From IMG/VR virus record IMGVR_UViG_3300033109_000080: a DNA stretch of 35,216 nt, one strand, 5' to 3'. The DNA comes from a virus. Positions 1 to 34,917 of the stretch are shown piece by piece. The translations under genes and the position numbers were made by a program. The notes under the pieces were generated by a model. The model had not been told where the DNA came from. It did no database searches and saw only the letters and a program-made list of their open reading frames with translations. How positions within the stretch are numbered: position 1 is the stretch's first letter; each line of letters opens with the position of its first letter.

Positions 1-239
1 CCGCCTCGAGGGCCAGCGCCCCTGAAGGGACGCAGCTCGAGGGCGGGGTGCTGGTCCCGTCGACGGGCTTCGGCGGGCCACCGGCGCGCGGCACGCGCGA
101 GCTCATCGCTGCCTATAAGACCGAGCCCTGGCTGCGGGCGGTCACTGGGCGCATCGCCCGCGGCGTCGCCGCGGCGACCTGGACCGTGTACGCCAGGAGC
201 TCGACCCCGGCGCCGACGTCGAACGCGCGCTCGCGCGGC
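1..239. repeat. Terminal direct repeat, copy 1 (identical to 34978..35216); overlap of a circular assembly, unit length 34,977 bp
   Basis: Compared base by base: 1-239 equals 34978-35216. The repeat lies inside the portal ORF, so it marks a closure overlap rather than a biological boundary. Confidence 0.95.
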
Positions 240-1502
240 CGCCGAGGCCCGGCCGGGAGGTTCCGCGACGTCGCGATGGCGCCAGCCTGGGGCTGGGGCT
301 CCGAGCGTGGCGTCGCGGATCGCTGGCTCGCCCGGGGTGCGGCGCCGGCGCGGGCGAAGCGGCGGCTCGAGCTCGCCGCCGAAGGGCTCCTGCGCGAGCT
401 GAGCGATCATCCGATGCTGGACCTGCTGGCCGCTCCGAACGAGTACATGACGGGGTTGGCGGCGCTCCAGCTCACGCAGGTCTGGCTGGACATCAAGGGC
501 GAGGCCTTCTGGCTCCTCGCCTTCGGCGCTGACGGGCAGCCCAGCGCGTTCTACCCGCTGCCGCCGCACTGGGTGACGGCGACTCCGACGGCGGCCACGC
601 CCTGGTTCCAGGTCTCATACGCCGGCGTGCAGCTGCGGGTGGCGCCGAAGGCGATGATCTGGCTCCGCGACCCCGATCCGGAGAACCCCTACGCCCGCGG
701 CACCGGCATCGCCGAGGCGCTTGGGGACGAGCTCGAGACGGATGAGTTCGCGGCGAAGTACCTGAAGGCCTGGTTCTTCAACAACGCGATGCCGGCCTTC
801 ATCGTCAGCTTCGACGGCGCCGAGCCGGCGCAGGTCAAGCGCGCGAAAGAAGTCTGGGAGTCGGAGCATCGCGGCGTCCACAACTCGCACCGCGCGCACT
901 TCTCCACGGGCAAGATGAACGCGGTCCGCCTCGACGCGAGCTTCCGCGACCAGCAGATCATCGACCTGCGCAAGCTCTCCCGCGACACGCTCGCCCAGGT
1001 GTTCGCGATGCCGCCGGAGGTCATCGGCATCATCGAGAACAGCAACCGCAGCACCATCGACGCGGCCCGGTACATCTACGTGCTGGGCGTCGAGTATCCG
1101 CGCGTCGAGTTCCTCCGCTCCGAGCTCCAGGCGCAGTACGTGCCGCTCTGGGACGAGGCGCTTGCGCTCGAGTGCGAGGTCGACGTCCCCGAGGATGAGG
1201 CCGCCCGCACCGCCGTGATGCGGGCGTTGCCGGGCGCGTTCGAGCTCAACGAGTGGCGCGAAGAGGCCGGCTACGCGCCGCTGCCGCAGTTCGTGGGGCG
1301 CTTCCCGCCGCTCGCTCAGCCAGGTCAGCAGCAGGACCCGCCGCCCGAGAAGCCCGCGGAGAAGCCGATGATGGACCCTGAGGAGGAGCCGGCAGATGGT
1401 GAGACCGAGCTCGAGCCGAAGCCGGCGCGAGGAGATCCACCGTGGGCGCGCGCCTGGGCCGACGACGTCCGCGCTGTTGCCGCCCGGAGGAACGGCACGT
1501 GA
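1..1502 (+). CDS. Phage portal protein (HK97-like family); the 5' end wraps around, with the true ATG at 34941
   Basis: The ORF track gives 48..1502. The frame stays open back to position 3 and continues from the ATG at 34941 across the circular junction (1539 nt, 512 aa in total). It sits directly after terL. Size and sequence character (LRDPDPENPY, FSTGKMNAVRLD, acidic C-terminus) fit portal proteins. Confidence 0.88.
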   Translation, partial: ASRASAPEGTQLEGGVLVPSTGFGGPPARGTRELIAAYKTEPWLRAVTGRIARGVAAATWTVYARSSTPAPTSNARSRGRRGPAGRFRDVAMAPAWGWGSERGVADRWLARGAAPARAKRRLELAAEGLLRELSDHPMLDLLAAPNEYMTGLAALQLTQVWLDIKGEAFWLLAFGADGQPSAFYPLPPHWVTATPTAATPWFQVSYAGVQLRVAPKAMIWLRDPDPENPYARGTGIAEALGDELETDEFAAKYLKAWFFNNAMPAFIVSFDGAEPAQVKRAKEVWESEHRGVHNSHRAHFSTGKMNAVRLDASFRDQQIIDLRKLSRDTLAQVFAMPPEVIGIIENSNRSTIDAARYIYVLGVEYPRVEFLRSELQAQYVPLWDEALALECEVDVPEDEAARTAVMRALPGAFELNEWREEAGYAPLPQFVGRFPPLAQPGQQQDPPPEKPAEKPMMDPEEEPADGETELEPKPARGDPPWARAWADDVRAVAARRNGT

Positions 1503-1810
1503 GGCTGACCGAGCGCCAGGCCACGTTCTGGACCCACCGCGCCGATCGCCGCGGCATGGGCCTCCACTTCCGCTGCCCGTGCTCGCCGGGCTGTGACCGG
1601 GTCATCTCGGTGCCCTTCGAGAATCCGGTCGATGGTGGCGGGCCAGAGCCGAGCGCGCAGGTGACCTGGCACCGCACCGGCGAAACGCTCGAGACGCTGA
1701 CGCTCACGCCAAGCATCGACTTCCGGCACGTCGCCGGCGACTTCGATCCAACGCCCGCGGGCTGGCACGGCTGGGTGCGCGACGGCGAGCTCGTCAACGC
1801 GGGTGGCTGA
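1499..1810 (+). CDS. Small zinc-ribbon protein (CPC..GC, TLTPSI, HGWVRDGELV motifs; resembles DUF6527-type small phage proteins)
   Basis: The GTG at 1499 overlaps the portal stop (GTGA) and is in frame with ORF 1442..1810. The motif pattern FRCPCSPGC ... TLTLTPSI ... WHGWVRDGELV is recalled from small phage proteins. The family assignment is from memory only. Confidence 0.55.
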   Translation: MRLTERQATFWTHRADRRGMGLHFRCPCSPGCDRVISVPFENPVDGGGPEPSAQVTWHRTGETLETLTLTPSIDFRHVAGDFDPTPAGWHGWVRDGELVNAGG

Positions 1811-1812
1811 GC

Positions 1813-2022
1813 GTGCCCCGCGTGATCAGCGCAGATCCGATGGCGGCCGCAGCTCTGAGAGCGGACGCTGTCACCGCGCTCGACGAGGTCCGCACGAGCA
1901 AGCGCCCCCCCATGTCGCCTCTCGAGGCGCTCGCCGTCTACAGAATCGCGAACGGCGAGGCGGTGAAGTTCCTCGGCCGCTGGTCGCTCTCCGCCGGGCT
2001 CGCACAGGAGGCCGTGCTGTGA
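1813..2022 (+). CDS. Hypothetical protein (69 aa)
   Basis: ORF with a GTG start 3 nt after the previous stop. Its stop overlaps the next GTG (GTGA). No recognisable motif. Confidence 0.45.
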   Translation: MPRVISADPMAAAALRADAVTALDEVRTSKRPPMSPLEALAVYRIANGEAVKFLGRWSLSAGLAQEAVL

Positions 2023-3110
2023 CGCTCTGGGCTGCCACCGGAACTCTCGCCACCGGTCGGTGCTTTCACCGAGCGGTGAGGCTGCTCGACGGCCGGGTGC
2101 TCGTCGCCGCTGGGTATAACGGCGGCTACCTGACTTCATGTGAGGTCTGGAATCCAGCGACCGGGACCTGGAGCCCCACTGGCAGCCTCGCCGGCCTCGG
2201 GAACTACTGGCCGGGACTCGCGCTCAACCCGCTCACCGGGAAGGTCTACAAGCTGGGCGGCTGGGGCGTGAGCAACATCCTCTCCGACTTGCAGGAGTGG
2301 GACCCAGCGACGGGCGTCTGGTCGACCAAGGCGGGACCGGGGCAAGGGTTCGCCGCTGGAGCGTGGCTGTGGATGGCGGGCAGCAACGTCTTCCTGCTCG
2401 CGGGCGGACACAACGGCGGGGCGGCGAGTCAGATGGTCAGGACCTATGACCCCGCGACCGACACCTGGACGCGCCAGCCTGATCTCCCGTACGCGTACAT
2501 CTATAACAACGGCATCTACGCGGGCGCGCGCGCCGTGCTGCCGCAGGAGTGGGTGAGCGCGGGCGGACAGGTCACGCAGGAGGTGCTCGACGGCACCTTC
2601 ACCTCAGCGGTCGCGGGCTACCTGAACGCCGCCCGCCTGTGCCACGGCACCTGCCGGCTGCCGAACGGAGACGTGCTGGTGTGGGGCGGCGGGAACGCGG
2701 GCAGCCTCCTTCCGGCGAACGACTCCGCCGACATCCACCGGCCCGGCGTCGGGCTCATCGGGCCGACGGGCAACAGCATGAGCGTGGTGCGCGGGTACAA
2801 CTTCGGCTCCGAGCCGGGGACGCACTACCGGGGAAAGCCGATCGCCCTCGGCGGCTACCAGAACGCCGCCCCCTACGCGGTGAGCGCCGTCGACTTGTAC
2901 GACCCGGCGACGAACCTCTGGGCTGCGACCGATCCAATGCTCGCGGCTCGCGCCGCGTGTGCGGTGGTGACGCTCGCCGACAGCCGCGTGTTGGCGATCG
3001 GTGGCTACGAGGATTCGCCGAGCTACCTGACCTCGTGCGAGGTCTACGGAGAGGCGCTCACCACTGTGAAGCCGTGGCTCGGAGCCGTGCTCAGGAGGCG
3101 CGCAGCATGA
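2019..3110 (+). CDS. Kelch-repeat beta-propeller protein (about 6 blades)
   Basis: Repeated blade signature: GRVLVAAGYNGGYLTSCEVWNPATGTWS, GKVYKLGGWG..LQEWDPATGVWS, NVFLLAGGHNGG..VRTYDPATDTWT, GDVLVWGGGNAG, PIALGGYQN..VDLYDPATNLWA, SRVLAIGGYEDSPSYLTSCEVYG. Start taken at the GTG at 2019 (GTGA overlap). The upstream part of ORF 1803..3110 is Arg-rich and overlaps the 69-aa ORF. Confidence 0.8.
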   Translation: MTLWAATGTLATGRCFHRAVRLLDGRVLVAAGYNGGYLTSCEVWNPATGTWSPTGSLAGLGNYWPGLALNPLTGKVYKLGGWGVSNILSDLQEWDPATGVWSTKAGPGQGFAAGAWLWMAGSNVFLLAGGHNGGAASQMVRTYDPATDTWTRQPDLPYAYIYNNGIYAGARAVLPQEWVSAGGQVTQEVLDGTFTSAVAGYLNAARLCHGTCRLPNGDVLVWGGGNAGSLLPANDSADIHRPGVGLIGPTGNSMSVVRGYNFGSEPGTHYRGKPIALGGYQNAAPYAVSAVDLYDPATNLWAATDPMLAARAACAVVTLADSRVLAIGGYEDSPSYLTSCEVYGEALTTVKPWLGAVLRRRAA

Positions 3111-4159
3111 AGATCATCCCCGGCCTGGCCTTCGACTTCGAGGTCTTCCTCGTCACCATCGCGACCGGGCTCGCGAAGACGACGGGCACCATCTACGCCT
3201 ACGTGCACCGCAGCTCGAACGGCTACTACCTCTGGGCGGACGCGGCCTGGCACGCGACGCTCCCGACGGGAGCCGACGTGCCGACCGCGACGCACACCAC
3301 GGGCGGCGACTGGAAGCTCACCGCCTCGGCCGGCATCACCGGCGCGCTCGCGACCCCGGGCGAGACGCTCACGTGTTCGATGCGCGACGCTGAGAGCGAG
3401 GCTGCTGCCACCGTCATCGGGGCGTCGCACTCAGCCCAGGTGGACGTCACGACGTCGTCGCGCCTTGCGCCGACGACGGCCGGGCGCACTCTCGACGTGT
3501 CGGCGGGAGGCGAGGCGGGCCTCGACTGGAGCAACATCGGCGCGCCCACTTCGACGCAAGGCCTCACGGGCACCACGATCGGCAACGTCGCCGGCACCGT
3601 CGCGGGCCACGCCGGGCAGGTGACCGTCACCGTGCTCGACTCTCTCGGCGCGCCCCTGGCCGGCGTCCTCGTCACGCTGCGCGCGAGCGGAGTCGTCGTG
3701 TCTGCCGGCACCACCAACGGCAGCGGGGTGGCTGTGCTCTCGCATGCCGGCGGCACCATCACCGTCCTCGGCTTCATCGGAGGCTACTCGATCACCACCG
3801 CGTCTCTGGGCGCACTGGCGGCCGATGCTGTCACGACGGCGGCGCTCACCGCTACCCTGCAGCAGGGCACCGCCGCGGCCGATCCCGGCGCGTGCACGGT
3901 CTACACGACGCTCCGACACCTCGACCTGAGCGTGGCCGCCGGCGTCACGGGGACCTGTCGCGTCGCCAGTCTCCCGGCTGAGCTCTCCGCGAACTTCGTC
4001 GAGGGCGCCTCGAGCTCGGCGACCAGCTCGGGCGCCGGGCTCATCTCGTGGACCGCGCCTCGAGGTGCGCGGGTGGTGGTAGAGATCCCGGGCCACCTGC
4101 CGGCGACGCTGATCACCGTGCCGAACGCGGCCTCGGTGAACCTCTCGACCCTGGTGTGA
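3107..4159 (+). CDS. Hypothetical structural/accessory protein with a carboxypeptidase-regulatory-like (Ig-like beta-sandwich) segment
   Basis: The ATG at 3107 overlaps the Kelch stop (ATGA). The segment GQVTVTVLDSLGAPLAGVLVTLRASGVVVSAGTTNGSGVAVLS looks like a CarboxypepD_reg-type repeat. The protein is rich in Thr/Ala/Gly. Confidence 0.6.
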   Translation: MKIIPGLAFDFEVFLVTIATGLAKTTGTIYAYVHRSSNGYYLWADAAWHATLPTGADVPTATHTTGGDWKLTASAGITGALATPGETLTCSMRDAESEAAATVIGASHSAQVDVTTSSRLAPTTAGRTLDVSAGGEAGLDWSNIGAPTSTQGLTGTTIGNVAGTVAGHAGQVTVTVLDSLGAPLAGVLVTLRASGVVVSAGTTNGSGVAVLSHAGGTITVLGFIGGYSITTASLGALAADAVTTAALTATLQQGTAAADPGACTVYTTLRHLDLSVAAGVTGTCRVASLPAELSANFVEGASSSATSSGAGLISWTAPRGARVVVEIPGHLPATLITVPNAASVNLSTLV

Positions 4160-4173
4160 CGAAGGGCTTTTGT

Positions 4174-4203
4174 CGGGTGAAAGCCTCGCGAGACGGTCCG
4201 GCC
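4174..4203 (+). promoter_or_regulatory. Conserved late-module leader element, copy 1 (CGGGTGAAAGCCTCGCGAGACGGTCCGGCC), abutting the protease ATG
   Basis: One of five copies; the others are at 9285, 16759, 32874 and 34911. It ends exactly at the ATG at 4204, and there is no Shine-Dalgarno sequence between them. Confidence 0.7.
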
Positions 4204-4890
4204 ATGACGATGGTCCGGCGCGAGCTCGCGGTCCTTCCGGTGGCGGCGGATGCCGCCGCGGCGAAGTCCCGGGTGCGCCGCTTCATCGCCAGCACCGACA
4301 CGCTCGACAGCCACAACAGCAAGATCAACCCCGACGGCTGGGAGCTCGAGCGCTTCAAGCGCAACCCGGTCATCCCGCTCTTCCACGCCTCGCGCGGGTT
4401 CCCGATCGGCAAGGGGCTCGACATCGGAGTCGTCGACCGCAAGCTGCAGCTCGGCATCGACTTCGCCCCGGCAGACGATCCGGTGGTGGGCGCGGACGCC
4501 GAGCAGGCGCTGCGCTGGATCGACCGCGGCGTGATGGCGGTCTCCGTCGGCTTCCACCCGCTCGAGGCCCAGGTCGCCGAGGATCGGTTGACCGGCGACC
4601 CGTGGGAAGATCTCTTCAACCCGCCCATCGACTACCTCCGGCAGGAGCTGCTCGAGGTGTCGATCGTCGCCATCGGCAGCAACCCCGACGCGTTGCCGCT
4701 GGGCCGCGAGCTGGTGGCCCGGGCCGCGCCGCGGACGCGGGTCGCCTGCGTCGCCGAGCTCGCGAAGCTCACCGCGGCCGCGGGCGAGCGCGTGCTGTCG
4801 CCAGACGAGCTGCGCCGGCTCGTCGCCGACGTCTTCAAGCAGTTGCGCGCCGATGCGGCGCGTCGCCGGGGCACCATCTCAGGAGGGTAA
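4204..4890 (+). CDS. Prohead maturation protease (HK97 / S78-U35 type)
   Basis: RRFIASTDTLDSHNSKINPDGW ... PLFHASRGFPIGKG ... GVMAVSVGFHPLE matches the layout of HK97-type prohead proteases. It lies immediately upstream of the major capsid gene. An alternative in-frame GTG is at 4177, inside the conserved element. Confidence 0.85.
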   Translation: MTMVRRELAVLPVAADAAAAKSRVRRFIASTDTLDSHNSKINPDGWELERFKRNPVIPLFHASRGFPIGKGLDIGVVDRKLQLGIDFAPADDPVVGADAEQALRWIDRGVMAVSVGFHPLEAQVAEDRLTGDPWEDLFNPPIDYLRQELLEVSIVAIGSNPDALPLGRELVARAAPRTRVACVAELAKLTAAAGERVLSPDELRRLVADVFKQLRADAARRRGTISGG

Positions 4891-4894
4891 CCAC

Positions 4895-6202
4895 GTGGAG
4901 ACCGTTTCCGTGAACATGACCGAGCTGAAGTCCATCATCCGCGACGCGGTCGCCGGCGAGATGAGCTCGCGCATGGAGGAGGCCACTGGCCGCGCGGTGA
5001 GCGAGGCCAAGAAGGCGGCGGCGGACCCGGCCGTGTTCCGCGAGATGCTGGACCGCGCGAAGGCCGCGGTCTCCACCACCGATCTCCCGCGCGCGACCGT
5101 CGACCGCACCACGCTGCAGGTCATCCACGATCCGCTCAAGGGCAAGGGCCTCAGTTTCGCCCGCTCCGTAAAGGCGATGGTGGTCGGCATCCTCGACCGC
5201 TGCTCGCCCGCCGACGTCGCCCGCGCCTGGGCGGCCAAGGGCTTCGCGCAGTACGAGGAGATCGCCGTCGCGCTCGACGCGCAGGCGCGCGCCTTCCTCA
5301 CCGGCGCCGCGGCGTCGGGCGGCACCCTCGTGCCCACGGCCCAGGCGGCCGAGGTCATCGAGCTGCTCTACCCGCGGACGGTCGCGCTCGTCTCCGGCGT
5401 CCGGACGATGGAGTTCACCGGCGCGGTCAACCTCGGCAAGATCAACAGCGGGGCGACCATCGGCTACACCGGTGAGGCCGGGCTGATGACGCCGAGCCAG
5501 CCGGGCACCGGCGAGCTGCGGATGTCGGGCAAGAAGGCGTACGGCCTGGTGCCCGTCTCGAACGAGATGCTCCGCAACCCGGCCGTGGGCGCCGACGCCC
5601 TCATCCGCGACGACCTGCTCAAGGCCCTCGCGGTCCGCCGCGACCTCAGCTTCTACCGCGGCGCCGGCAACACCTTCCAGCCGAAGGGCATGAAGGGCTG
5701 GATCAACAGCGCGAACTCGAACGCGATGACGGGCACGCCCACCGCCGCGACGAAGATCGCCGACCTGGTGAAGGCCATCGGCCTGGTCGACGGCGCCGAC
5801 GTGCAGCTCGATGAGTCGGCCGGCTTCGTCATGGCGCCCCGCACGCACTGGGCGCTCGTCGGCACCACCGACGCGAACTCGAACCTGCTCTTCGCGGCCA
5901 TGCTGGCGGCCGGGCAGCTCTTCGGCTTCATGTGCCGCCGGACCAGCTCGATCCCGACCAACCTCGGCGGGGGCACCGAGTCTGAGGTCTACTTCGGCTC
6001 GCACGGCGACGCGATCCTCGGCTTCGATCTCGCCAACCCGCTGCAGGTCGAGGCCTTCCCGAACGGGACGTACCACGACGGCTCCGCGCTCGTGTCGGGC
6101 ATCAGCACCGACATGACCCCCATCCGCATCCTCGAGGGCCACGACGTCGTGCTGCGGCACGACAAGGCCTTCGCGATGATCACCGGCGTCACCTGGGCCT
6201 AA
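4895..6202 (+). CDS. Major capsid protein (HK97 fold) with an N-terminal coiled-coil delta/scaffold region
   Basis: AGGAGGG at 4881-4887 lies 7 nt before the GTG at 4895. It encodes 435 aa after the protease, with a charged helical N-terminus followed by a Gly/Ala-rich body typical of HK97-family capsids. Confidence 0.9.
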   Translation: METVSVNMTELKSIIRDAVAGEMSSRMEEATGRAVSEAKKAAADPAVFREMLDRAKAAVSTTDLPRATVDRTTLQVIHDPLKGKGLSFARSVKAMVVGILDRCSPADVARAWAAKGFAQYEEIAVALDAQARAFLTGAAASGGTLVPTAQAAEVIELLYPRTVALVSGVRTMEFTGAVNLGKINSGATIGYTGEAGLMTPSQPGTGELRMSGKKAYGLVPVSNEMLRNPAVGADALIRDDLLKALAVRRDLSFYRGAGNTFQPKGMKGWINSANSNAMTGTPTAATKIADLVKAIGLVDGADVQLDESAGFVMAPRTHWALVGTTDANSNLLFAAMLAAGQLFGFMCRRTSSIPTNLGGGTESEVYFGSHGDAILGFDLANPLQVEAFPNGTYHDGSALVSGISTDMTPIRILEGHDVVLRHDKAFAMITGVTWA

Positions 6203-6242
6203 GCCAGGCCGCCTGAAGCACACGCAGTCCAGGAGGAGCGAC

Positions 6243-6686
6243 ATGAGCAACGTCATGGTGAATGGCATCGGCCCCGAGGTGAAGCTCGCCATCGGGACGC
6301 CGGCCGGCGACATCGCTGCGGGCACCGTCACCGGCGCGGCCATCGACCGCACCGGCTTCGACTCGATGGTGCTCCACGCGCAGACGGGCGCCGTGGCGGG
6401 CGCCCCCGACACGCAGACGGTGGACACGAAGGTGACCCACTGCGACACCTCGGGCGGCTCGTACACCGACTGGCAGCCTGAGGGCACCGCGGCGTCGGGA
6501 GCGGTCGCGCAGATCACCGCGGCCAACACCCGGAAGCGCAAGTCGATGAGCCTCAAGGGCGCCAAGCAGTTCCTGAAGATCGTCACCGTCACCGCCTTCA
6601 CCGGCGGCACCTCGCCGAAGATCGGCCAGGCGGTCGACGTCATCCTCGGCAGCGCGGTGTCCGTCCCCGCCCAGGCCGACGACTAA
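6243..6686 (+). CDS. Hypothetical protein; possible head decoration/cement protein by position
   Basis: Strong SD (AGGAGGAG, 6231-6238) before the ATG at 6243. Directly downstream of the capsid gene and followed by a hairpin. The function is positional inference only. Confidence 0.55.
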   Translation: MSNVMVNGIGPEVKLAIGTPAGDIAAGTVTGAAIDRTGFDSMVLHAQTGAVAGAPDTQTVDTKVTHCDTSGGSYTDWQPEGTAASGAVAQITAANTRKRKSMSLKGAKQFLKIVTVTAFTGGTSPKIGQAVDVILGSAVSVPAQADD

Positions 6687-6706
6687 CCCAGCTCACCCCC
6701 ACGACA

Positions 6707-6745
6707 GGCCCGCGCCATCTCTGGGCGGGCCGCTTCCCTCTTCCC
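6707..6745 (+). terminator. GC-rich hairpin plus pyrimidine/T-containing tail after the capsid/decoration genes (candidate attenuating terminator)
   Basis: GGCCCGC (6707-6713) pairs with GCGGGCC (6725-6731) around an 11-nt loop and is followed by CTTCCCTCTTCC. The U-tract is weak. Confidence 0.35.
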
Positions 6746-6767
6746 GTCGTCGCCGTCGAGGTCTCCC

Positions 6768-7052
6768 ATGCCCGAGCTCGTCGTCCTCCAGCTGTCGAAG
6801 CACTACAAGAACAACATCGCCGGGGAGATCGCCTCCTTCCCGCCGGACGTCGCCGCTCACATCATCAAGGCGGACGGCGGCACGAAGCTGGCGGAGCTCG
6901 ACCGCGACCAGCGCTACGACGTCGCCACCAAGAAGGTGGTGCCCATCGAGAAGAGCAACCCGGCCGACGTCGCCGAGCTCAAGGCGAAGCTGGCGAAGGC
7001 GACCCAGCTCGTCGCGGACCTCGAGCGCCAGCTCGCGACGAAGCCGAAGTAG
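6768..7052 (+). CDS. Hypothetical protein (94 aa, Lys-rich coiled-coil C-terminus)
   Basis: ORF with an ATG start in the head module. No recognised motif. Confidence 0.55.
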   Translation: MPELVVLQLSKHYKNNIAGEIASFPPDVAAHIIKADGGTKLAELDRDQRYDVATKKVVPIEKSNPADVAELKAKLAKATQLVADLERQLATKPK

Positions 7053-7079
7053 CCCGCCAGCCGGGCGAGAGGAGCGCAG

Positions 7080-7739
7080 GTGCCCGAGGCAGATCTCACG
7101 CTGCCCGCGACGGTGGCCGCCGAGCTCGGCATCGCCTCGAGCGACGCCCGCCTGCCGCGCCTCATCGCCGCCGCCTCGGCCGCCATCCGCGCGCACCTGG
7201 GCCGCCCGCAGCTCCACTACTCGGCCGCCTACGTCGAGAAGGTGGCCGGCTTCGGTGGCCCGCGCCTGGTGCTGGGTCTGACGCCGGTGGGGGCCATCGC
7301 CAGCATCGTCCTGGGCGACGGCTCGACCGTGACGGCCTCGGAGTACACCCTCGAGGACGCGCAGGCCGGGCTGGTCTACCGCACCGGCTGCTGGCCGTGG
7401 ACGGGGCTCGTTCGGCCCGGGCTGCTCTACAGCGACCCAGCGATGGGCACGGAGAAGGCGGAGATCACCGTCACCTACGCCGGGGGCTGGGTGACGCCGG
7501 CGCAGGCGGGCTCGAATGGCTGGACGGGCCCGGCGCAGAGCCTGCCCGCGGACATCGAGGAGGCGGCGGTGCAGACCGTGGTGGGCCTGTACCGGCGAGG
7601 GGGCCTCGATCCGTCCATCGCCAGCGAGGGCCTCGGCGACTACTCGGTGAGCTACCGCGCCGAGGACCCCTCGCTCGGCAGCGCGCTGCCTGCCCGGGCG
7701 CTGCAGCTCCTCGCACCGTACCGGAGGCTCATCTCGTGA
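7080..7739 (+). CDS. Head-tail connector / gp6-like DNA-packaging adaptor
   Basis: SD GAGAGGAG (7066-7073) before the GTG at 7080. The N-terminal pattern LPATVAAELGIASSDARLPRLIAAASAAIRAHLGRP is typical of gp6-like (QLRG-type) head-tail connectors. Position is after the capsid genes. Confidence 0.65.
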   Translation: MPEADLTLPATVAAELGIASSDARLPRLIAAASAAIRAHLGRPQLHYSAAYVEKVAGFGGPRLVLGLTPVGAIASIVLGDGSTVTASEYTLEDAQAGLVYRTGCWPWTGLVRPGLLYSDPAMGTEKAEITVTYAGGWVTPAQAGSNGWTGPAQSLPADIEEAAVQTVVGLYRRGGLDPSIASEGLGDYSVSYRAEDPSLGSALPARALQLLAPYRRLIS

Positions 7740-7864
7740 AGCGACGAGCACAGCGGGCGGCACAGCTCCTCGTCGAGGCGGCGGTGCTCGCGCCCATCGT
7801 CGCCGTCCTCATGACGTGCGTCGTGCTCGAGGTCGCTGCCGAAGAGCTGCGGGGTCGACGGTGA
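7736..7864 (+). CDS. Possible small hydrophobic protein (42 aa)
   Basis: The GTG at 7736 overlaps the upstream stop (GTGA). High GC3 and one hydrophobic stretch, LLVEAAVLAPIVAVLMTCVVLEV. Very short, so uncertain. Confidence 0.3.
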   Translation: MKRRAQRAAQLLVEAAVLAPIVAVLMTCVVLEVAAEELRGRR

Positions 7865-8043
7865 GCATCATCGAGCCTCCGCGATGCGGATGTTGCGGTG
7901 CTCCGTGGGAGCAGAAGTGCTCCTACTGCGGCCGCGATTCACGCGTGGCCGCAGTGGCCGCAGTGGAGGCGAGGCCGCCAGGCCCGCGACCGAGGCCTCT
8001 TCTCACTTCTGTTCCGGGCAGCGGCACGAGAGTGTGGAGCTGA
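7861..8043 (+). CDS. Possible CxCC..CxxC mini-protein (60 aa) in a lower-GC insert; may be non-coding
   Basis: The GTG at 7861 overlaps the previous stop. It encodes PPRCGCCGAPWEQKCSYCG. Third-position GC is poor and the region contains a tandem 9-mer, so coding status is doubtful. Confidence 0.25.
   Translation: MSIIEPPRCGCCGAPWEQKCSYCGRDSRVAAVAAVEARPPGPRPRPLLTSVPGSGTRVWS
7945..7966. repeat. Tandem 9-mer GTGGCCGCA x2.4
   Basis: Read directly: GTGGCCGCA GTGGCCGCA GTGG. Confidence 0.85.
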
Positions 8044-17241: not shown

Positions 17242-17441
17242 GCCCCGAGCACCCTGGCGTACCTGTCGAGCCGAAGAACTCCCCCGAGCTCGAGGAGCTG
17301 CTCTCGGAGATCGAGAAGATCCGCGACCCTCATCGCCGCCGGACCGCCCGCGCGAAGCTGATGGCGCGCGTCGGGCGCTGGGTGGTGCGCCACGGCCCGG
17401 CATCGGACCTCTCGTCTGCGCGGCCGAAGGACGTGCCGTGA
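17238..17441 (+). CDS. Hypothetical protein (67 aa)
   Basis: GTGA overlap on both sides. Confidence 0.4.
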   Translation: MSPEHPGVPVEPKNSPELEELLSEIEKIRDPHRRRTARAKLMARVGRWVVRHGPASDLSSARPKDVP

Positions 17442-17659
17442 GCGCGGACGCCGTCCACCACCCACCCCACTACACCCAGGGCGCGGTGGAGTGCATCGAC
17501 GCGCTCGAGGCGGCCACCACCGGGCTCGTCGGCGTGGAGGCTGTCTGCACCGCGGCGGTCATCAAGTACCTCTGGCGGTGGAAGCGGAAGGGCGGGCTCG
17601 AGGATCTCCAGAAGGCCCGCTGGTACCTCGATCGACTCATCGGAAAGGTGGCCTCTTGA
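17438..17659 (+). CDS. DUF3310-family protein
   Basis: PPHYTQGAVECIDALEAA ... AVIKYLWRWKRKGGLEDLQKARWYLDRLI is the characteristic DUF3310 signature (HY..g.iE.id ... KY..R...K....DL.KA..Yl..L). Confidence 0.75.
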   Translation: MSADAVHHPPHYTQGAVECIDALEAATTGLVGVEAVCTAAVIKYLWRWKRKGGLEDLQKARWYLDRLIGKVAS

Positions 17660-23450: not shown

Positions 23451-24776
23451 ATGGCCCGCCTCTTCCATCGACCGGGTGACTCCACCTGGTGGCTCGACTT
23501 CACCGACGCGGCCGGGCGTCGGCGTCGCGTGAAGACGGACACCACTTCGAGGCGGGCCGCGGAAGATCTCCTCGCGGAGCTCCGCGCCAACCGCCGGCGG
23601 GAGTCCCTCGGCCTCGAGGCGACCACCAGCTCAGCGATCTCCACCGTCGCCCAGGCCTGGCGCCTCTGGCTCGAGCGGTGGTGCCCCGAGGCGTCCGCGC
23701 CCCGGGAGTGGCGCAGGTACCGGGCGAACATCGAGAAGTCCTGGTTCGGCCAGGAGCGCCTGACGCGCCTCACCGGTGAGCAGCTCGAGCGGTGGTTCGG
23801 CGAGAAGGTGAAGGCCGGCCAGGCGCCCCGCACCGTCAACGGCCACCGCACCATCCTGCGCCGGGTCGTCAACTGCCTCATCCAACGCCGGCTCTTCCGC
23901 GGCCTCAACCCGGTGCGCGAGACGAGGCCCCTGCAGGTCCCTGAGTACGCCTACCAGGTGCTCACCGAGGACGAGCTCCACCGCGTGCTGCCGCACCTGC
24001 CGGGCGAGTGGCGCGACGTCGTCGAGCTCGCCTTCACCGCGGGCCTGCGGCGAGGGGAGATCTACGCCCTCCGGAAGGACCGCGCCGTTCTGGACCTCGA
24101 GCGCGGCATCCTCACCCCGCGCGCGAGCAACGCCCGGCCGATGCCCAAAGGCCGCCGAATCCTCTCCATCCCCCTGACACCGGAGTCGCGGTCCGTGCTC
24201 GAGCGCGCCTGGGAGCGGACGCGTCCGGGCGAGCTGCTCTTCCCGGGCGTCGACGGGCAACTCCGGAGCGAGAACCTGAGGCCCTCGGAAGCCCTCAGGA
24301 GCGCGATGGGCCGCGCGGGGCTGGTCGAGGGCTGGCTGCACACCTGTCGGTGGCGCTGTGGGGTTCAGCAGCGTCACGATGACGAGCAGCAGCGTCGGTG
24401 CCCGAAGTGCGGGCGGCTGCTCTGGCCGAAGGCGCTCGTGCGGCGGGTGCGGTTCCACGACTTGAGGCACTCGACGGCCAACCACCTCCTCGACCGCGGG
24501 GTGCCGCTCGAGGACGTGCAGCTCTACTTGCGGCACTCCACCATCGCGATCACCGCCCACACCTACCGGCACCGCACCGTCGAGGCCCTGCGCAAGGCGG
24601 TCACCTCGCTGAGCCCTGAGCAGCTCGAGCGGCACCTCGACTCGCTCGCGCGCGGGCAGCCGGCGCACGTCCAGGCGCTCCTCCGAGAAACCGCCGCGAA
24701 ACTGGCACTTTTCAGGCACCAGCCCCTTGCACGAGGGGCCCTCAAACCAGCCAAATCCAACCGAAAGGCGAGGTAG
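23451..24776 (+). CDS. int: Tyrosine recombinase / phage integrase with an inserted CxxxC...CxxC zinc ribbon
   Basis: Catalytic signature AFTAGLRRGEI (Arg), FHDLRHSTAN (H-x-x-R), LRHS and AHTYRH (Tyr). The insertion is CRWRCGVQQRHDDEQQRRCPKCG. Lies adjacent to a tRNA-like sequence. Confidence 0.92.
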   Translation: MARLFHRPGDSTWWLDFTDAAGRRRRVKTDTTSRRAAEDLLAELRANRRRESLGLEATTSSAISTVAQAWRLWLERWCPEASAPREWRRYRANIEKSWFGQERLTRLTGEQLERWFGEKVKAGQAPRTVNGHRTILRRVVNCLIQRRLFRGLNPVRETRPLQVPEYAYQVLTEDELHRVLPHLPGEWRDVVELAFTAGLRRGEIYALRKDRAVLDLERGILTPRASNARPMPKGRRILSIPLTPESRSVLERAWERTRPGELLFPGVDGQLRSENLRPSEALRSAMGRAGLVEGWLHTCRWRCGVQQRHDDEQQRRCPKCGRLLWPKALVRRVRFHDLRHSTANHLLDRGVPLEDVQLYLRHSTIAITAHTYRHRTVEALRKAVTSLSPEQLERHLDSLARGQPAHVQALLRETAAKLALFRHQPLARGALKPAKSNRKAR

Positions 24777-32891: not shown

Positions 32892-33683
32892 CACCATGGA
32901 GCCGTGCCGCCGAAGGTCGCCAAGAAGCGCTGCGCGCGCTGCCGCAAGTCGAAGCCGGTGAAGGGCTGGCCGCCCAACGCCGCTCGAGCAGACGGCCTGG
33001 GCATCTACTGCCGCCAGTGCAAGCGCGAGGCGGACCGCGGCGCGCCGCCCCCGAAGCCCAGATGGAACCGGCCCGCGTCGAAGGCGCCTCCCGGTGGAGA
33101 CGCGCCGAAGCGCAAGCCCGGCCCGGCCTCGAAGCTCACGCCCGAGCTCGTCGAGCAACTCTGCGCCGTGCTGCGCAAGGGGCACACCTACCGCGCGGCG
33201 TGCGCGCGCTCGGGCATCGACGATCGGACCTTCCGCGACTGGATGGCCGAGGGCCTCGAGGCGCGCACCGGGCCGAAGTGGGGGCTCTACCTCGCGGTGC
33301 GAGAGGCCGAAGGCGAAGGCGAGGCCTCGCTGACCGACATCGTCCGGGACGCCGCGGAGATCGATCCGCAGTACGCGAAGTGGCTGCTCGAGCGCCGTCA
33401 CCCCGTCGACTGGGCGCGCAAGGAGCAGATCGCCGTCACCGGCGGCGAGGGCAAGGCCCTGGAGGTGTCGGTTGTCCGAGAGCTCATCAGCAAGCGGATC
33501 GACGGTCTCCTCGCGGCTCGCCCAGCAACTCCGCCGAGTGGAGGAGCAGGCGGTGCTGGCGGACCAGCTCCAGGAGGCGGGGCAGGCGCCGCCATTGCCG
33601 AAGGTGCTGCGACTCCACCACCGCCTGCAGCTCCTGACGCCGGCGGAGAAGCAGAACCTCCTGGAGGCGCTGAGCGAAGCTGA
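32877..33683 (+). CDS. terS: Terminase small subunit (N-terminal zinc ribbon, HTH, Gly/Ala/Pro-rich tail)
   Basis: Immediately upstream of terL. LTPELVEQLCAVLRKGHTYRAACARSGIDDRTFRDWM is a typical TerS HTH. CARC...CRQC lies at the N-terminus. Start is the GTG at 32877 or at 32904. The 3' end overlaps terL by 212 nt. Confidence 0.65.
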   Translation: MKASAHHGAVPPKVAKKRCARCRKSKPVKGWPPNAARADGLGIYCRQCKREADRGAPPPKPRWNRPASKAPPGGDAPKRKPGPASKLTPELVEQLCAVLRKGHTYRAACARSGIDDRTFRDWMAEGLEARTGPKWGLYLAVREAEGEGEASLTDIVRDAAEIDPQYAKWLLERRHPVDWARKEQIAVTGGEGKALEVSVVRELISKRIDGLLAARPATPPSGGAGGAGGPAPGGGAGAAIAEGAATPPPPAAPDAGGEAEPPGGAERS

Positions 33684-34917
33684 GCTCGTCGCGCTCCTGT
33701 ATGACTGGACGGGCGCGTGGGCGCGCGACTCCCAGCTCATCCCCGCGGGCGACTGGTTCGTCTGGCTCATCCTCGCCGGCCGCGGCTACGGGAAGACGCG
33801 CACGGGCGCCGAGAGCGTGCGGCACCTGGCCGAGACGGGGCAGGCGCGGCGGATCGCCCTCATCGCGCCGACCTCCGCTGATGCCCGCGACGTGATGATC
33901 GAAGGCGAGTCGGGGCTGCTCGCGGTGTGCCCGCCCTCGGCGATGCCGAGGTATGAGCCCTCGAAGCGGCGCCTCACCTGGCCCAACGGCGCCCGCGCGA
34001 CGCTCTTCTCGGCCGAGGAAGGGAGCCGACTCCGCGGGCCCCAGCATGATCTGCTCTGGGGCGATGAGCCGGCGAGCTGGACGGACGAGTCCACCTGGCG
34101 GAATGCGGTGATGGGTCTGCGGCTGGGCCGGCAGCCGCGGGCGATTCTCACCGGCACGCCACAGCCGGTGCCGTTGATCTTGAGCCTGATGAAGGACCCG
34201 AAGACGCACCTCACCCGCGGGTCCACCTTCGAGAACGCAGGCAACCTCGCGAGCGAGTACATCCGCCAGGTGCAGCGCATGTACGCCGGCACGCGCATCG
34301 GCCGGCAGGAGCTCGAGGCCGAGGTGCTCGAGGACGTCGTCGGGGCGCTCTTCAACCAGGCCCTCATCGACAAGCACCGCGTCGAGAAGGCGCCGGACCT
34401 CGCCCGGATCGTCGTCGCGGTCGATCCAGCGCAGACGGGGACTGAACGCGCCGACGAGTCGCAGAAGCACAACGACGAGCACGGGATCGTCGTGTGCGGC
34501 AAGGATCTCGAGAGCGAGGACGCGCACGGCTACGTGCTCGCGGACCTCTCGATGCGCGGCAGCCCCGACGAGTGGGCCCGCGCCGCGGTGAAGGCGTTCT
34601 ACACGTTCCGCGCGAACTGCGTCGTCGTGGAGTCGAACTGCGGCGGCGAGATGGTCGAGGCGACGATCCGCACCATCGACGCCTCGGTGCCCGTGAAGAT
34701 CGTCCGCGCCATGCGCGGCAAGGCCAAGCGCGCCGAGCCCATCGCCGCGCTCCACGAGCAGGGCCGGATTCACCACGTCGGAGTCGAAGGGCTCGAGAAG
34801 CTCGAGAAGCAGATGCGCGTCTTCACGGGGGCGAACGGGCGCCGCGACGACAGGACGGACGCGATGTGCTGGGGCTTCCACGATCTGCTCGTCGGCGGCG
34901 GCTTCTTCTTCGGGTGA
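33472..34917 (+). CDS. terL: Terminase large subunit
   Basis: LLYDWTGAWARDSQLIPAGDWFVWLILAGRGYGKTRTGAE contains the Walker A motif GRGYGKT. The layout is an ATPase followed by a nuclease-like C-terminus. GGAGG (33461-33465) sits 6 nt before the TTG at 33472; later GTGs at 33538, 33553 and 33604 are also possible starts. Confidence 0.9.
   Translation: MSESSSASGSTVSSRLAQQLRRVEEQAVLADQLQEAGQAPPLPKVLRLHHRLQLLTPAEKQNLLEALSEAELVALLYDWTGAWARDSQLIPAGDWFVWLILAGRGYGKTRTGAESVRHLAETGQARRIALIAPTSADARDVMIEGESGLLAVCPPSAMPRYEPSKRRLTWPNGARATLFSAEEGSRLRGPQHDLLWGDEPASWTDESTWRNAVMGLRLGRQPRAILTGTPQPVPLILSLMKDPKTHLTRGSTFENAGNLASEYIRQVQRMYAGTRIGRQELEAEVLEDVVGALFNQALIDKHRVEKAPDLARIVVAVDPAQTGTERADESQKHNDEHGIVVCGKDLESEDAHGYVLADLSMRGSPDEWARAAVKAFYTFRANCVVVESNCGGEMVEATIRTIDASVPVKIVRAMRGKAKRAEPIAALHEQGRIHHVGVEGLEKLEKQMRVFTGANGRRDDRTDAMCWGFHDLLVGGGFFFG

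Follow-up and report, generated by a model that had tools for sequence, protein, structure and literature searches.

Results

The DNA examined here is IMG/VR virus record IMGVR_UViG_3300033109_000080, a stretch of 35,216 nucleotides (nt) that we refer to in its entirety as the window; it is a complete, circularly permuted genome of a temperate phage, ~35 kb long with 70% GC. Its head module has the HK97-type order portal (PF04860), protease, capsid (PF05065), the protease being called from weak profiles and a conserved position, and our subject is a block of four genes, hereafter the island, that parts the portal gene from the protease gene. A preliminary description, made from the letters of the window without database searches, had placed four same-strand open reading frames (ORFs) at 1499-4159 between portal and protease, and this was borne out: the frames have the third-position periodicity of coding DNA, and portal, protease and capsid genes were found at the flanks (Table 1). 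The 5′ end of the portal gene falls outside the window, the true start lying 63 nt upstream, and the full-length protein of 521 amino acids (aa) is encoded on contig L001.

Table 1. Coordinates of the island genes, the flanking genes and related elements on other contigs (L numbers)
Feature	Position	Strand	Remarks
Island gene 1, 103 aa	1499-1810	+	DUF6527/BubE-family
Island gene 2, 69 aa	1813-2022	+	ORFan
Island gene 3, 363 aa	2019-3110	+	Kelch beta-propeller
Island gene 4, 350 aa	3107-4159	+	Ala/Thr-rich fibre-like protein
Conserved ~45-aa module (LAPTTAGRTLDVSAGGEAGLDWSNIGAPTSTQGLTGT) within gene 4	3458-3586	+	Common to 118/119 family members
Ancestral portal-protease spacer, downstream insertion boundary	4160-4203	+	Homologous to spacer 3′ of portal stop in L002-L008, L023, L027
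Portal	1-1502	+	PF04860 E 3.8e-41; phrog_2662 E 3.8e-65
Prohead protease, 228 aa	4204-4890	+	TIGR01543 and phrog_80 matches weak; position conserved in relatives
HK97-type major capsid protein	4895-6202	+	PF05065 E 2.4e-28; phrog_10 E 3.6e-35
Integrase	23451-24776
Large terminase	33472-34917
Spacer in relatives	L003 9567-9625; L004 9486-9540; L005 2729-2790; L007 3723-3785; L008 3688-3745; L023 2057-2110
Further copies of the module	L010 10334-10480; L013 10337-10453; L011 10310-10501
DUF6527 examples	L014 10001-10306; L018 8001-8315; L019 3459-3779

Since DNA of 70% GC yields many long spurious ORFs, we used frame-specific third-position GC (GC3) as the coding test. In all four island ORFs GC3 is 0.86-0.91, as against 0.54-0.62 at position 2, and a sliding frame-wise profile changes frame exactly at the proposed gene junctions; the Kelch frame of gene 3, for example, is non-coding upstream of 2019, where the frame of gene 2 has a GC3 of 0.86. 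The start of gene 2 depends on the gene caller, others placing it at an ATG at 1840, which gives 60 aa. The identical arrangement occurs in two further assemblies, one from a Joint Genome Institute (JGI) sample and one from an SRA run, where the JGI contig (L038) shows 100% identity across the 9 kb that were compared and the SRA contig encodes proteins that are 98.6-100% identical; the layout is therefore not an assembly chimera. One could still suspect an artefact, either through chimeric assembly or because high-GC DNA produces spurious ORFs in number, and the lack of any homologue for the 69-aa ORF of gene 2 (ORF69) would suit such a suspicion; however, GC3 periodicity that switches frame at each junction, strong Pfam and structure matches for genes 1 and 3, the many homologues of gene 4 and the recurrence in two further assemblies make an artefact very improbable, and we rejected an assembly artefact on the frame switching, the homologues and the additional assemblies. 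A variant contig by which selection on the island might be gauged was sought, and none was found, L038 being identical over the compared 9 kb.

The island genes had been described as translationally coupled throughout by GTGA and ATGA overlaps. Three junctions do overlap in this manner (portal/gene 1, GTGA, 1499-1502; gene 2/gene 3, GTGA, 2019-2022; gene 3/gene 4, ATGA, 3107-3110), but genes 1 and 2 are separated by a 2-nt gap. Motifs resembling ribosome-binding sites, GGAGG or AGGAGG, stand 8-9 nt 5′ of each island start (for gene 1, GGAGG at 1487-1491). A scan of positions 1-7000 for sigma-70-like promoters and intrinsic terminators found none, the sigma-70 model being one that may not fit the host. 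Because the junctions are coupled and promoter- and terminator-like sites are absent, we infer late co-transcription, and co-expression of the island with the late head operon is plausible from these features. The earlier statement that coupling to the portal implies late expression is thus reasonable insofar as coupling, ribosome-binding-site-like motifs and the absence of promoter- and terminator-like sites agree with it, but overlaps are common genome-wide, so those of the island are not special. In base composition the island stands slightly apart: the GC3 values of its genes (0.857-0.909) are the four lowest among 19 structural-arm genes, the others ranging from 0.918 to 0.991.

For comparison of gene order we used ten relatives whose portal proteins are 52-64% identical to that of the window, namely seven IMG/VR contigs and a near-duplicate (L002-L008), the metagenome contig L023 and L027, a contig of an Archangium sp. 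metagenome-assembled genome (MAG). These were recovered by portal-based searches that needed a portal alignment as query; in single-protein locus scans, the capsid protein retrieved nothing in viral contigs, and the portal protein nothing in the first genome scan. L027 (JANODF010000163.1) carries the nearest genome-derived portal relative, at 55% identity, with the same portal-protease-capsid order. This myxobacterial relative and the 70% GC hint, as weak evidence, at a host among the Myxococcota, and the host may be a myxobacterium. The protease gene lies directly 3′ of the portal gene in 10/10 relatives, and tblastn of the four island proteins against all ten found none of them present. The view that an accessory block splits portal from protease, for which a comparison of gene order had been proposed as a check, is therefore upheld.

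The point of insertion can be placed to the nucleotide. In the relatives a homologous spacer of ~45 nt (TGACGGCGG..CGCATCGTGTGAA..CATGAC) lies directly 3′ of the portal stop and ends at the protease ATG, whereas in the window this spacer comes immediately after gene 4, and the stop codon of the portal gene overlaps the gene 1 start. Since the spacer is found behind gene 4 here and behind the portal stop in the relatives, a 2.66-kb block has been inserted whose two boundaries are precisely the portal stop and the ancestral spacer. The spacer (..CGCATCGTGTGAA..CATGAC) is itself conserved despite portal identities of only 52-64%, and the protease ATG has no strong Shine-Dalgarno sequence in front of it. 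It is the same element that had been interpreted as a conserved leader restarting the module at the protease, a reading that does not hold, for it is present in relatives that have no island, and its predicted hairpin is no stabler than that of shuffled sequence (z-score -0.39; no Rfam match). Direct or inverted repeats flanking the block, sought as a sign of transposition, were not found. In a more distant relative (L009/L024) the slot between portal and protease is occupied differently, and the portal carries a fused domain that, from our reading of its sequence, we take to be MuF-like.

The same slot between portal and scaffold or protease is the one used by the SPP1 gp7/Mu F family of minor head proteins, which are encoded after the portal. 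The four island proteins gave no match to MuF or gp7, and we rejected this identification. As the relatives lack the island, its genes are not required for basic particle assembly. The island genes have separate, unrelated sets of homologues, no two of which occur together in any other locus examined, and blastn of positions 1-8000 against 50,697 records of isolated phages gave zero matches. By the distribution of these homologues the island is a mosaic accessory cassette, its genes drawn from separate sources and lying outside the conserved head-assembly machinery.

Gene 4 encodes an Ala/Thr/Gly-rich protein (16.9% Ala, 14.9% Thr) that begins with an N-terminal domain (aa 1-115), continues with a conserved module (aa ~118-160) and ends in two beta-sandwiches (aa ~170-245 and 255-350). 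Domain-wise BLAST found no homologue of the N-terminal domain among the family members retrieved, and aa 166-350 are closely related only to the C-terminus of one protein, P0123 (61% identity). The module (LAPTTAGRTLDVSAGGEAGLDWSNIG...), present in one copy in gene 4, was matched in 118/119 listed proteins, the best matches being 73-86% identical over 42-48 aa, and it is conserved at the protein level across phage contigs of 43-70% GC. It was absent from Pfam, PHROGs v4, PDB sequences and the 50,697 isolated phage genomes; PHROGs searched with nine members of the family, and tblastn of a multi-repeat member against the isolated phages, likewise gave no matches, and gene 4 itself found nothing by tblastn among the isolated phages or among PDB sequences. 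It has the look of an undescribed fibre module under strong constraint. More than 100 metagenomic phage proteins that are otherwise unrelated carry the pattern L.PT.AGRTLDVSAGGEAGLDWANIGSPTT..LSGT, in one copy or several. P0123 (L021 187-1743) was called on a 6-kb contig, just upstream of an endolysin gene, as a fusion to PAS/HAMP sensor domains, and this sensor-fibre fusion is probably a chimeric assembly or an artefact of gene calling.

Members of the gene 4 family occupy positions of the tail-fibre type, either in the structural regions of podophage-like contigs, which have SU10-type adaptor genes, or beside endolysin genes. Gene 4 resembles this unnamed metagenomic family (the 'PTxAGRTLDVSAGGEAGLDWANIGSPTT' module) in its single copy of the module, and its C-terminal sandwiches are common with P0123; the other members, in contrast, usually have a different N-terminal domain and occur in tail-type positions of podophage-like genomes. 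Foldseek searches of viral models gave weak matches, mostly to tail-fibre proteins. The protein had been characterized as Thr/Ala-rich with a carboxypeptidase-regulatory-like or immunoglobulin (Ig)-like sandwich; composition and the sandwiches in the AlphaFold2 (AF2) model agree with this, but the corresponding Pfam matches are below their cutoffs (Big_1, 21.3 vs 34.9; CarboxypepD_reg, 17.3 vs 32.3).

Two kinds of head-associated function must be considered for such a protein. Ig-like capsid decoration proteins are exemplified by T4 Hoc and T5 pb10, and gene 4 is like them in encoding an accessory, beta-sandwich-rich, presumably late-expressed protein that could mediate weak surface adhesion. 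It differs in that it is not beside the capsid gene and carries a fibre-type repeat module absent from Hoc and pb10. The suggestion of a Hoc-like capsid decoration is not indicated by the positions of its relatives at tail-fibre-type sites or beside endolysin genes, and such a role, which we did not retain, finds no support in the gene position or in Pfam, where no Ig-domain match was significant; the modelled domains are sandwiches of the transthyretin/CnaB type. The other possibility is that the island products are fibres of the neck, collar or head, together with factors for head completion, that have become integral to the particle of this lineage, a structural innovation at the portal vertex. 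The genes adjoin the portal gene and are translationally coupled to it, and PDB matches of the C-terminal sandwich include neck and neck-fibre proteins of phages XM1 and A-1(L); these matches, however, are weak (E 6e-3 to 2e-2, template modelling (TM) score 0.46-0.48) and involve a generic sandwich fold, the N-terminal domain of gene 4 is without a homologue that could link it to any neck protein, and all close relatives assemble heads without island genes. We thus regard an integral neck or head component as unlikely.

The presence of a Kelch propeller at 2019-3110, put forward with a fold search as its check, is supported by Pfam, AF2 and Foldseek alike. Gene 3 matches Kelch_1 with 88.6 bits (cutoff 20.1; E 1.7e-25), and Kelch_6, Kelch_4, Kelch_2 and Kelch_3 also score above their own cutoffs. 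The AF2 model (predicted local distance difference test (pLDDT) 85.9, predicted TM score (pTM) 0.87) has 27-28 strands, with an N-terminal strand that closes the last blade, and Foldseek aligns it with human Kelch domains (NS1-BP, KLHL, Keap1) at E 2.6e-19 and TM scores by target (TMt) of 0.73-0.78. Six blades had been counted; seven xGG second-strand motifs, 42-55 aa apart, and the number of strands in the secondary-structure string indicate that the propeller probably has seven, and TM scores by query (TMq) of only ~0.6 against six-bladed domains fit an extra blade. The protein has neither a signal peptide nor an additional domain. The first and last blades share a 24-nt stretch (2125-2148 and 3022-3045; 88% identical) that encodes GYLTSCEV, and this likeness suggests a fairly recent internal blade duplication or gene conversion.

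The best non-self homologue of gene 3 is 32% identical. Among isolated phages (tblastn, 50,697 records) only nine matches were found, all weak, with ≤29% identity to any phage Kelch protein; PHROG 16120 ('virion structural protein') and a phiERICV 'phage structural protein' were also matched weakly. Beta-propeller receptor-binding proteins are known in phages, for example Gp45 of staphylococcal phage phi11. The Kelch protein CBB_552 of the jumbo phage vB_PcaM_CBB has been detected in virions by mass spectrometry (PMC5259590). Gene 3 has in common with CBB_552 and Gp45 a phage-encoded Kelch or beta-propeller fold, for which there is thus at least one virion precedent. Those proteins, however, belong to jumbo phages or baseplate modules, and the fold is usually part of a larger protein, whereas gene 3, which lies within the head module of a temperate phage of 35 kb, encodes a protein that consists of the propeller alone.

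Gene 2 is an ORFan by all searches made. A HMMER scan of 1.84 billion representatives returned the protein itself and two repeat-protein artefacts, which were rejected on inspection, and there was no match in Pfam, PHROG, NCBIfam or PADLOC; the NCBIfam scan of the proteins as a whole gave trivial matches only.

Gene 1 matches PF20137 (DUF6527) with 33.8 bits (cutoff 23.6; E 3.1e-8), a domain that the precomputed annotation of the identical protein also lists. DUF6527 corresponds to BubE, a Zn-dependent Ser-His peptidase of bacterial Bub ubiquitination-like operons, in which it acts as the deconjugating peptidase of the ubiquitin-like pathway (bioRxiv 10.1101/2024.11.21.623953). When aligned with BubE of Citrobacter and E. 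coli (sequences given in the supplement of that report), gene 1 has S72 and H90 at the positions of the catalytic S92 and H102 of the Citrobacter protein, and this dyad is invariant in the five closest homologues. C26, C28 and C32 fall on the CxCxC cluster of the zinc site, but the fourth cysteine (C99) is replaced by Ala87. The C4 site is therefore incomplete, as it is in one other member of the phage clade that also lacks the fourth cysteine; a C3 or C3H site is possible on this alignment. The earlier label of zinc-ribbon protein is correct as to the three Zn cysteines but falls short, given the DUF6527/BubE assignment with its Ser-His dyad, and we regard gene 1, from its sequence, as a putative minimal Zn-binding Ser-His peptidase of the BubE type. 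It is like BubE in its score above the PF20137 cutoff, its CxC...C cluster and its aligned Ser and His; it differs in being phage-borne and stand-alone, in lacking a hydrophobic N- or C-terminal extension and in having Ala for the fourth Zn cysteine.

A word-seeded search found only five homologues of gene 1, all stand-alone proteins of ~100 aa on phage-like contigs, and tblastn against isolated phages gave zero matches. Stand-alone DUF6527/BubE genes of ~100 aa recur on the unrelated phage-like contigs L014-L020, mostly in non-structural contexts. We found no description of phage-borne DUF6527/BubE homologues in the literature searched, in which two preprints mention the domain, both on bacterial operons. 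A structural role, which had been suggested for the products of the island, does not suit gene 1, whose closest homologues are found among small non-structural genes of other phages, a circumstance of the kind named beforehand as refuting such a role.

This raises the question of whether the island as a whole could be non-structural cargo that serves counter-defence, host takeover or lysogenic conversion within the cell during infection or lysogeny, and is merely parked in a late operon. Several features would be in keeping with cargo: the DUF6527 homologues stand alone amid small non-structural genes; BubE acts as the deconjugating peptidase in a ubiquitin-like pathway; propellers of the Kelch type are general scaffolds for protein binding, and gene 3 has no virion-anchoring domain; ORF69 is an orphan; and GC3 in the island is below that of the structural genes. 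However, the family of gene 4 resides in phage structural modules and has fibre-like modularity, the island is tightly coupled in translation to the portal gene with no promoter-like site of its own, and a PADLOC scan of the four island proteins returned no defence-related match. We therefore consider cargo for the entire island a real but clearly minor possibility.

A further idea is that the BubE-like peptidase, produced alongside the virion proteins, serves counter-defence by stripping host Bub/Bil ubiquitin-like modifiers off phage structural proteins, with the Kelch propeller possibly as substrate adaptor, by analogy to the Kelch domains that are substrate adaptors in eukaryotic ubiquitin ligases. 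We hold this to be improbable. A search of the Bub operon tables for myxobacterial hosts found none, so nothing there supports a host Bub system, nor did other support for the idea emerge. In the window itself, no E1, E2 or ubiquitin-like protein (Ubl) family was found among the proteins scanned, which were a part of its ORFs; the neighbours of gene 1 are portal, ORF69 and Kelch. If the gene 1 peptidase did remove ubiquitin-like modifiers, it would represent a new class of anti-defence protein.

Discussion

We found that the portal and protease genes of this phage are separated by a cassette that its relatives lack; the insertion lies at the stop codon of the portal gene and belongs to a single lineage of a temperate HK97-type siphophage. 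Our preferred explanation, to which we would give a probability of roughly 55%, is that the island is a mosaic, late-expressed cassette in which the Kelch protein and gene 4 would form an auxiliary adhesin and the peptidase would be separate cargo. Under this explanation the cassette would be read as part of the late head operon. Gene 4 would be a modular fibre-type adhesin with a lineage-specific N-terminal anchor, the widely shared ~45-aa module as shaft or linker, and exchangeable C-terminal sandwiches for binding; the Kelch protein, encoded upstream and translationally coupled to it, would likely be its ligand-binding or assembly partner, and the two together would make up an auxiliary appendage of the virion that binds the host surface. 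Gene 1 would be a putative minimal BubE-like Ser-His peptidase travelling as independent cargo. The tail module, whose last gene encodes an 890-aa tip protein, includes no separate fibre gene, so an auxiliary adhesin would add something. For the individual proteins, a role in the virion or as a decoration is plausible for gene 4 only.

Several observations weigh against this explanation. The partnership of Kelch protein and fibre is proposed solely from the adjacency of their genes. The nearest relatives of gene 3, at ~30% identity, come from cellular genomes and unbinned metagenome contigs, and most of them are longer proteins with several domains; the homologues of gene 4 occur in tail-type positions, none of them beside a portal gene. 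The AF2 model of gene 4 has an overall pLDDT of 57.8 and is confident only at aa 170-215 and 255-350, leaving the N-terminal 'anchor' unmodelled, and its Foldseek matches in the PDB (pilin, CnaB and transthyretin-like sandwiches) are weak and generic, with E of 1e-3 at best. The homologues of gene 1 are surrounded by small non-structural genes or stand where a structural block ends, never with E1, E2 or Ubl genes, and late co-expression draws in part on the scan whose sigma-70 model may be unsuited to the host.

The preferred explanation of a mosaic cassette places the island close to a familiar class of phage genes. Hendrix and Juhala are said to have described 'morons', accessory cassettes in the late operons of phages with HK97- or lambda-type mosaicism. 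Classical morons have a promoter and a terminator of their own and are expressed from the prophage. The island resembles them in that one phage carries it whereas relatives have nothing at the corresponding junction, in leaving the conserved structural genes undisturbed and in having a composition slightly different from its flanks. It differs in that no promoter- or terminator-like site was found, in its coupling to the portal gene, in comprising four genes and in being itself mosaic.

The island is thus an expected and fairly ordinary instance of phage mosaicism, its recognisable genes belonging to known families (Kelch, DUF6527) or to a large unnamed metagenomic one. It is nevertheless a clean example of gene gain within the most conserved block of an HK97-type head module, with a nucleotide-exact insertion point and the ancestral spacer kept, and it draws attention to two little-studied groups in uncultivated phages, the stand-alone BubE-family peptidases and the fibre-like family with the ~45-aa module. 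Should the Kelch and fibre proteins prove to be borne on the virion, they would be a compact system for studying the auxiliary adhesins of temperate phages that infect high-GC soil bacteria.

The remainder of the genome includes two DNA methylase genes and genes for a tape-measure protein and a tail protein, and across the circular join the large terminase gene continues into the portal gene; a search for tRNA genes found none. After the tail genes, a 73-aa ORF at 17438-17659 strongly matches (E 6e-28) the C-terminal part of several 'nucleotide kinase' PHROGs, although it constitutes a small stand-alone domain only. Directly 3′ of the capsid gene lies a gene of 147 aa (6243-6686; phrog_5707, function unknown) that is kept, at 43-55% identity, in those relatives whose contigs are long enough, and for a conserved protein of decoration or head completion its product is to be preferred, as a candidate, over those of the island.

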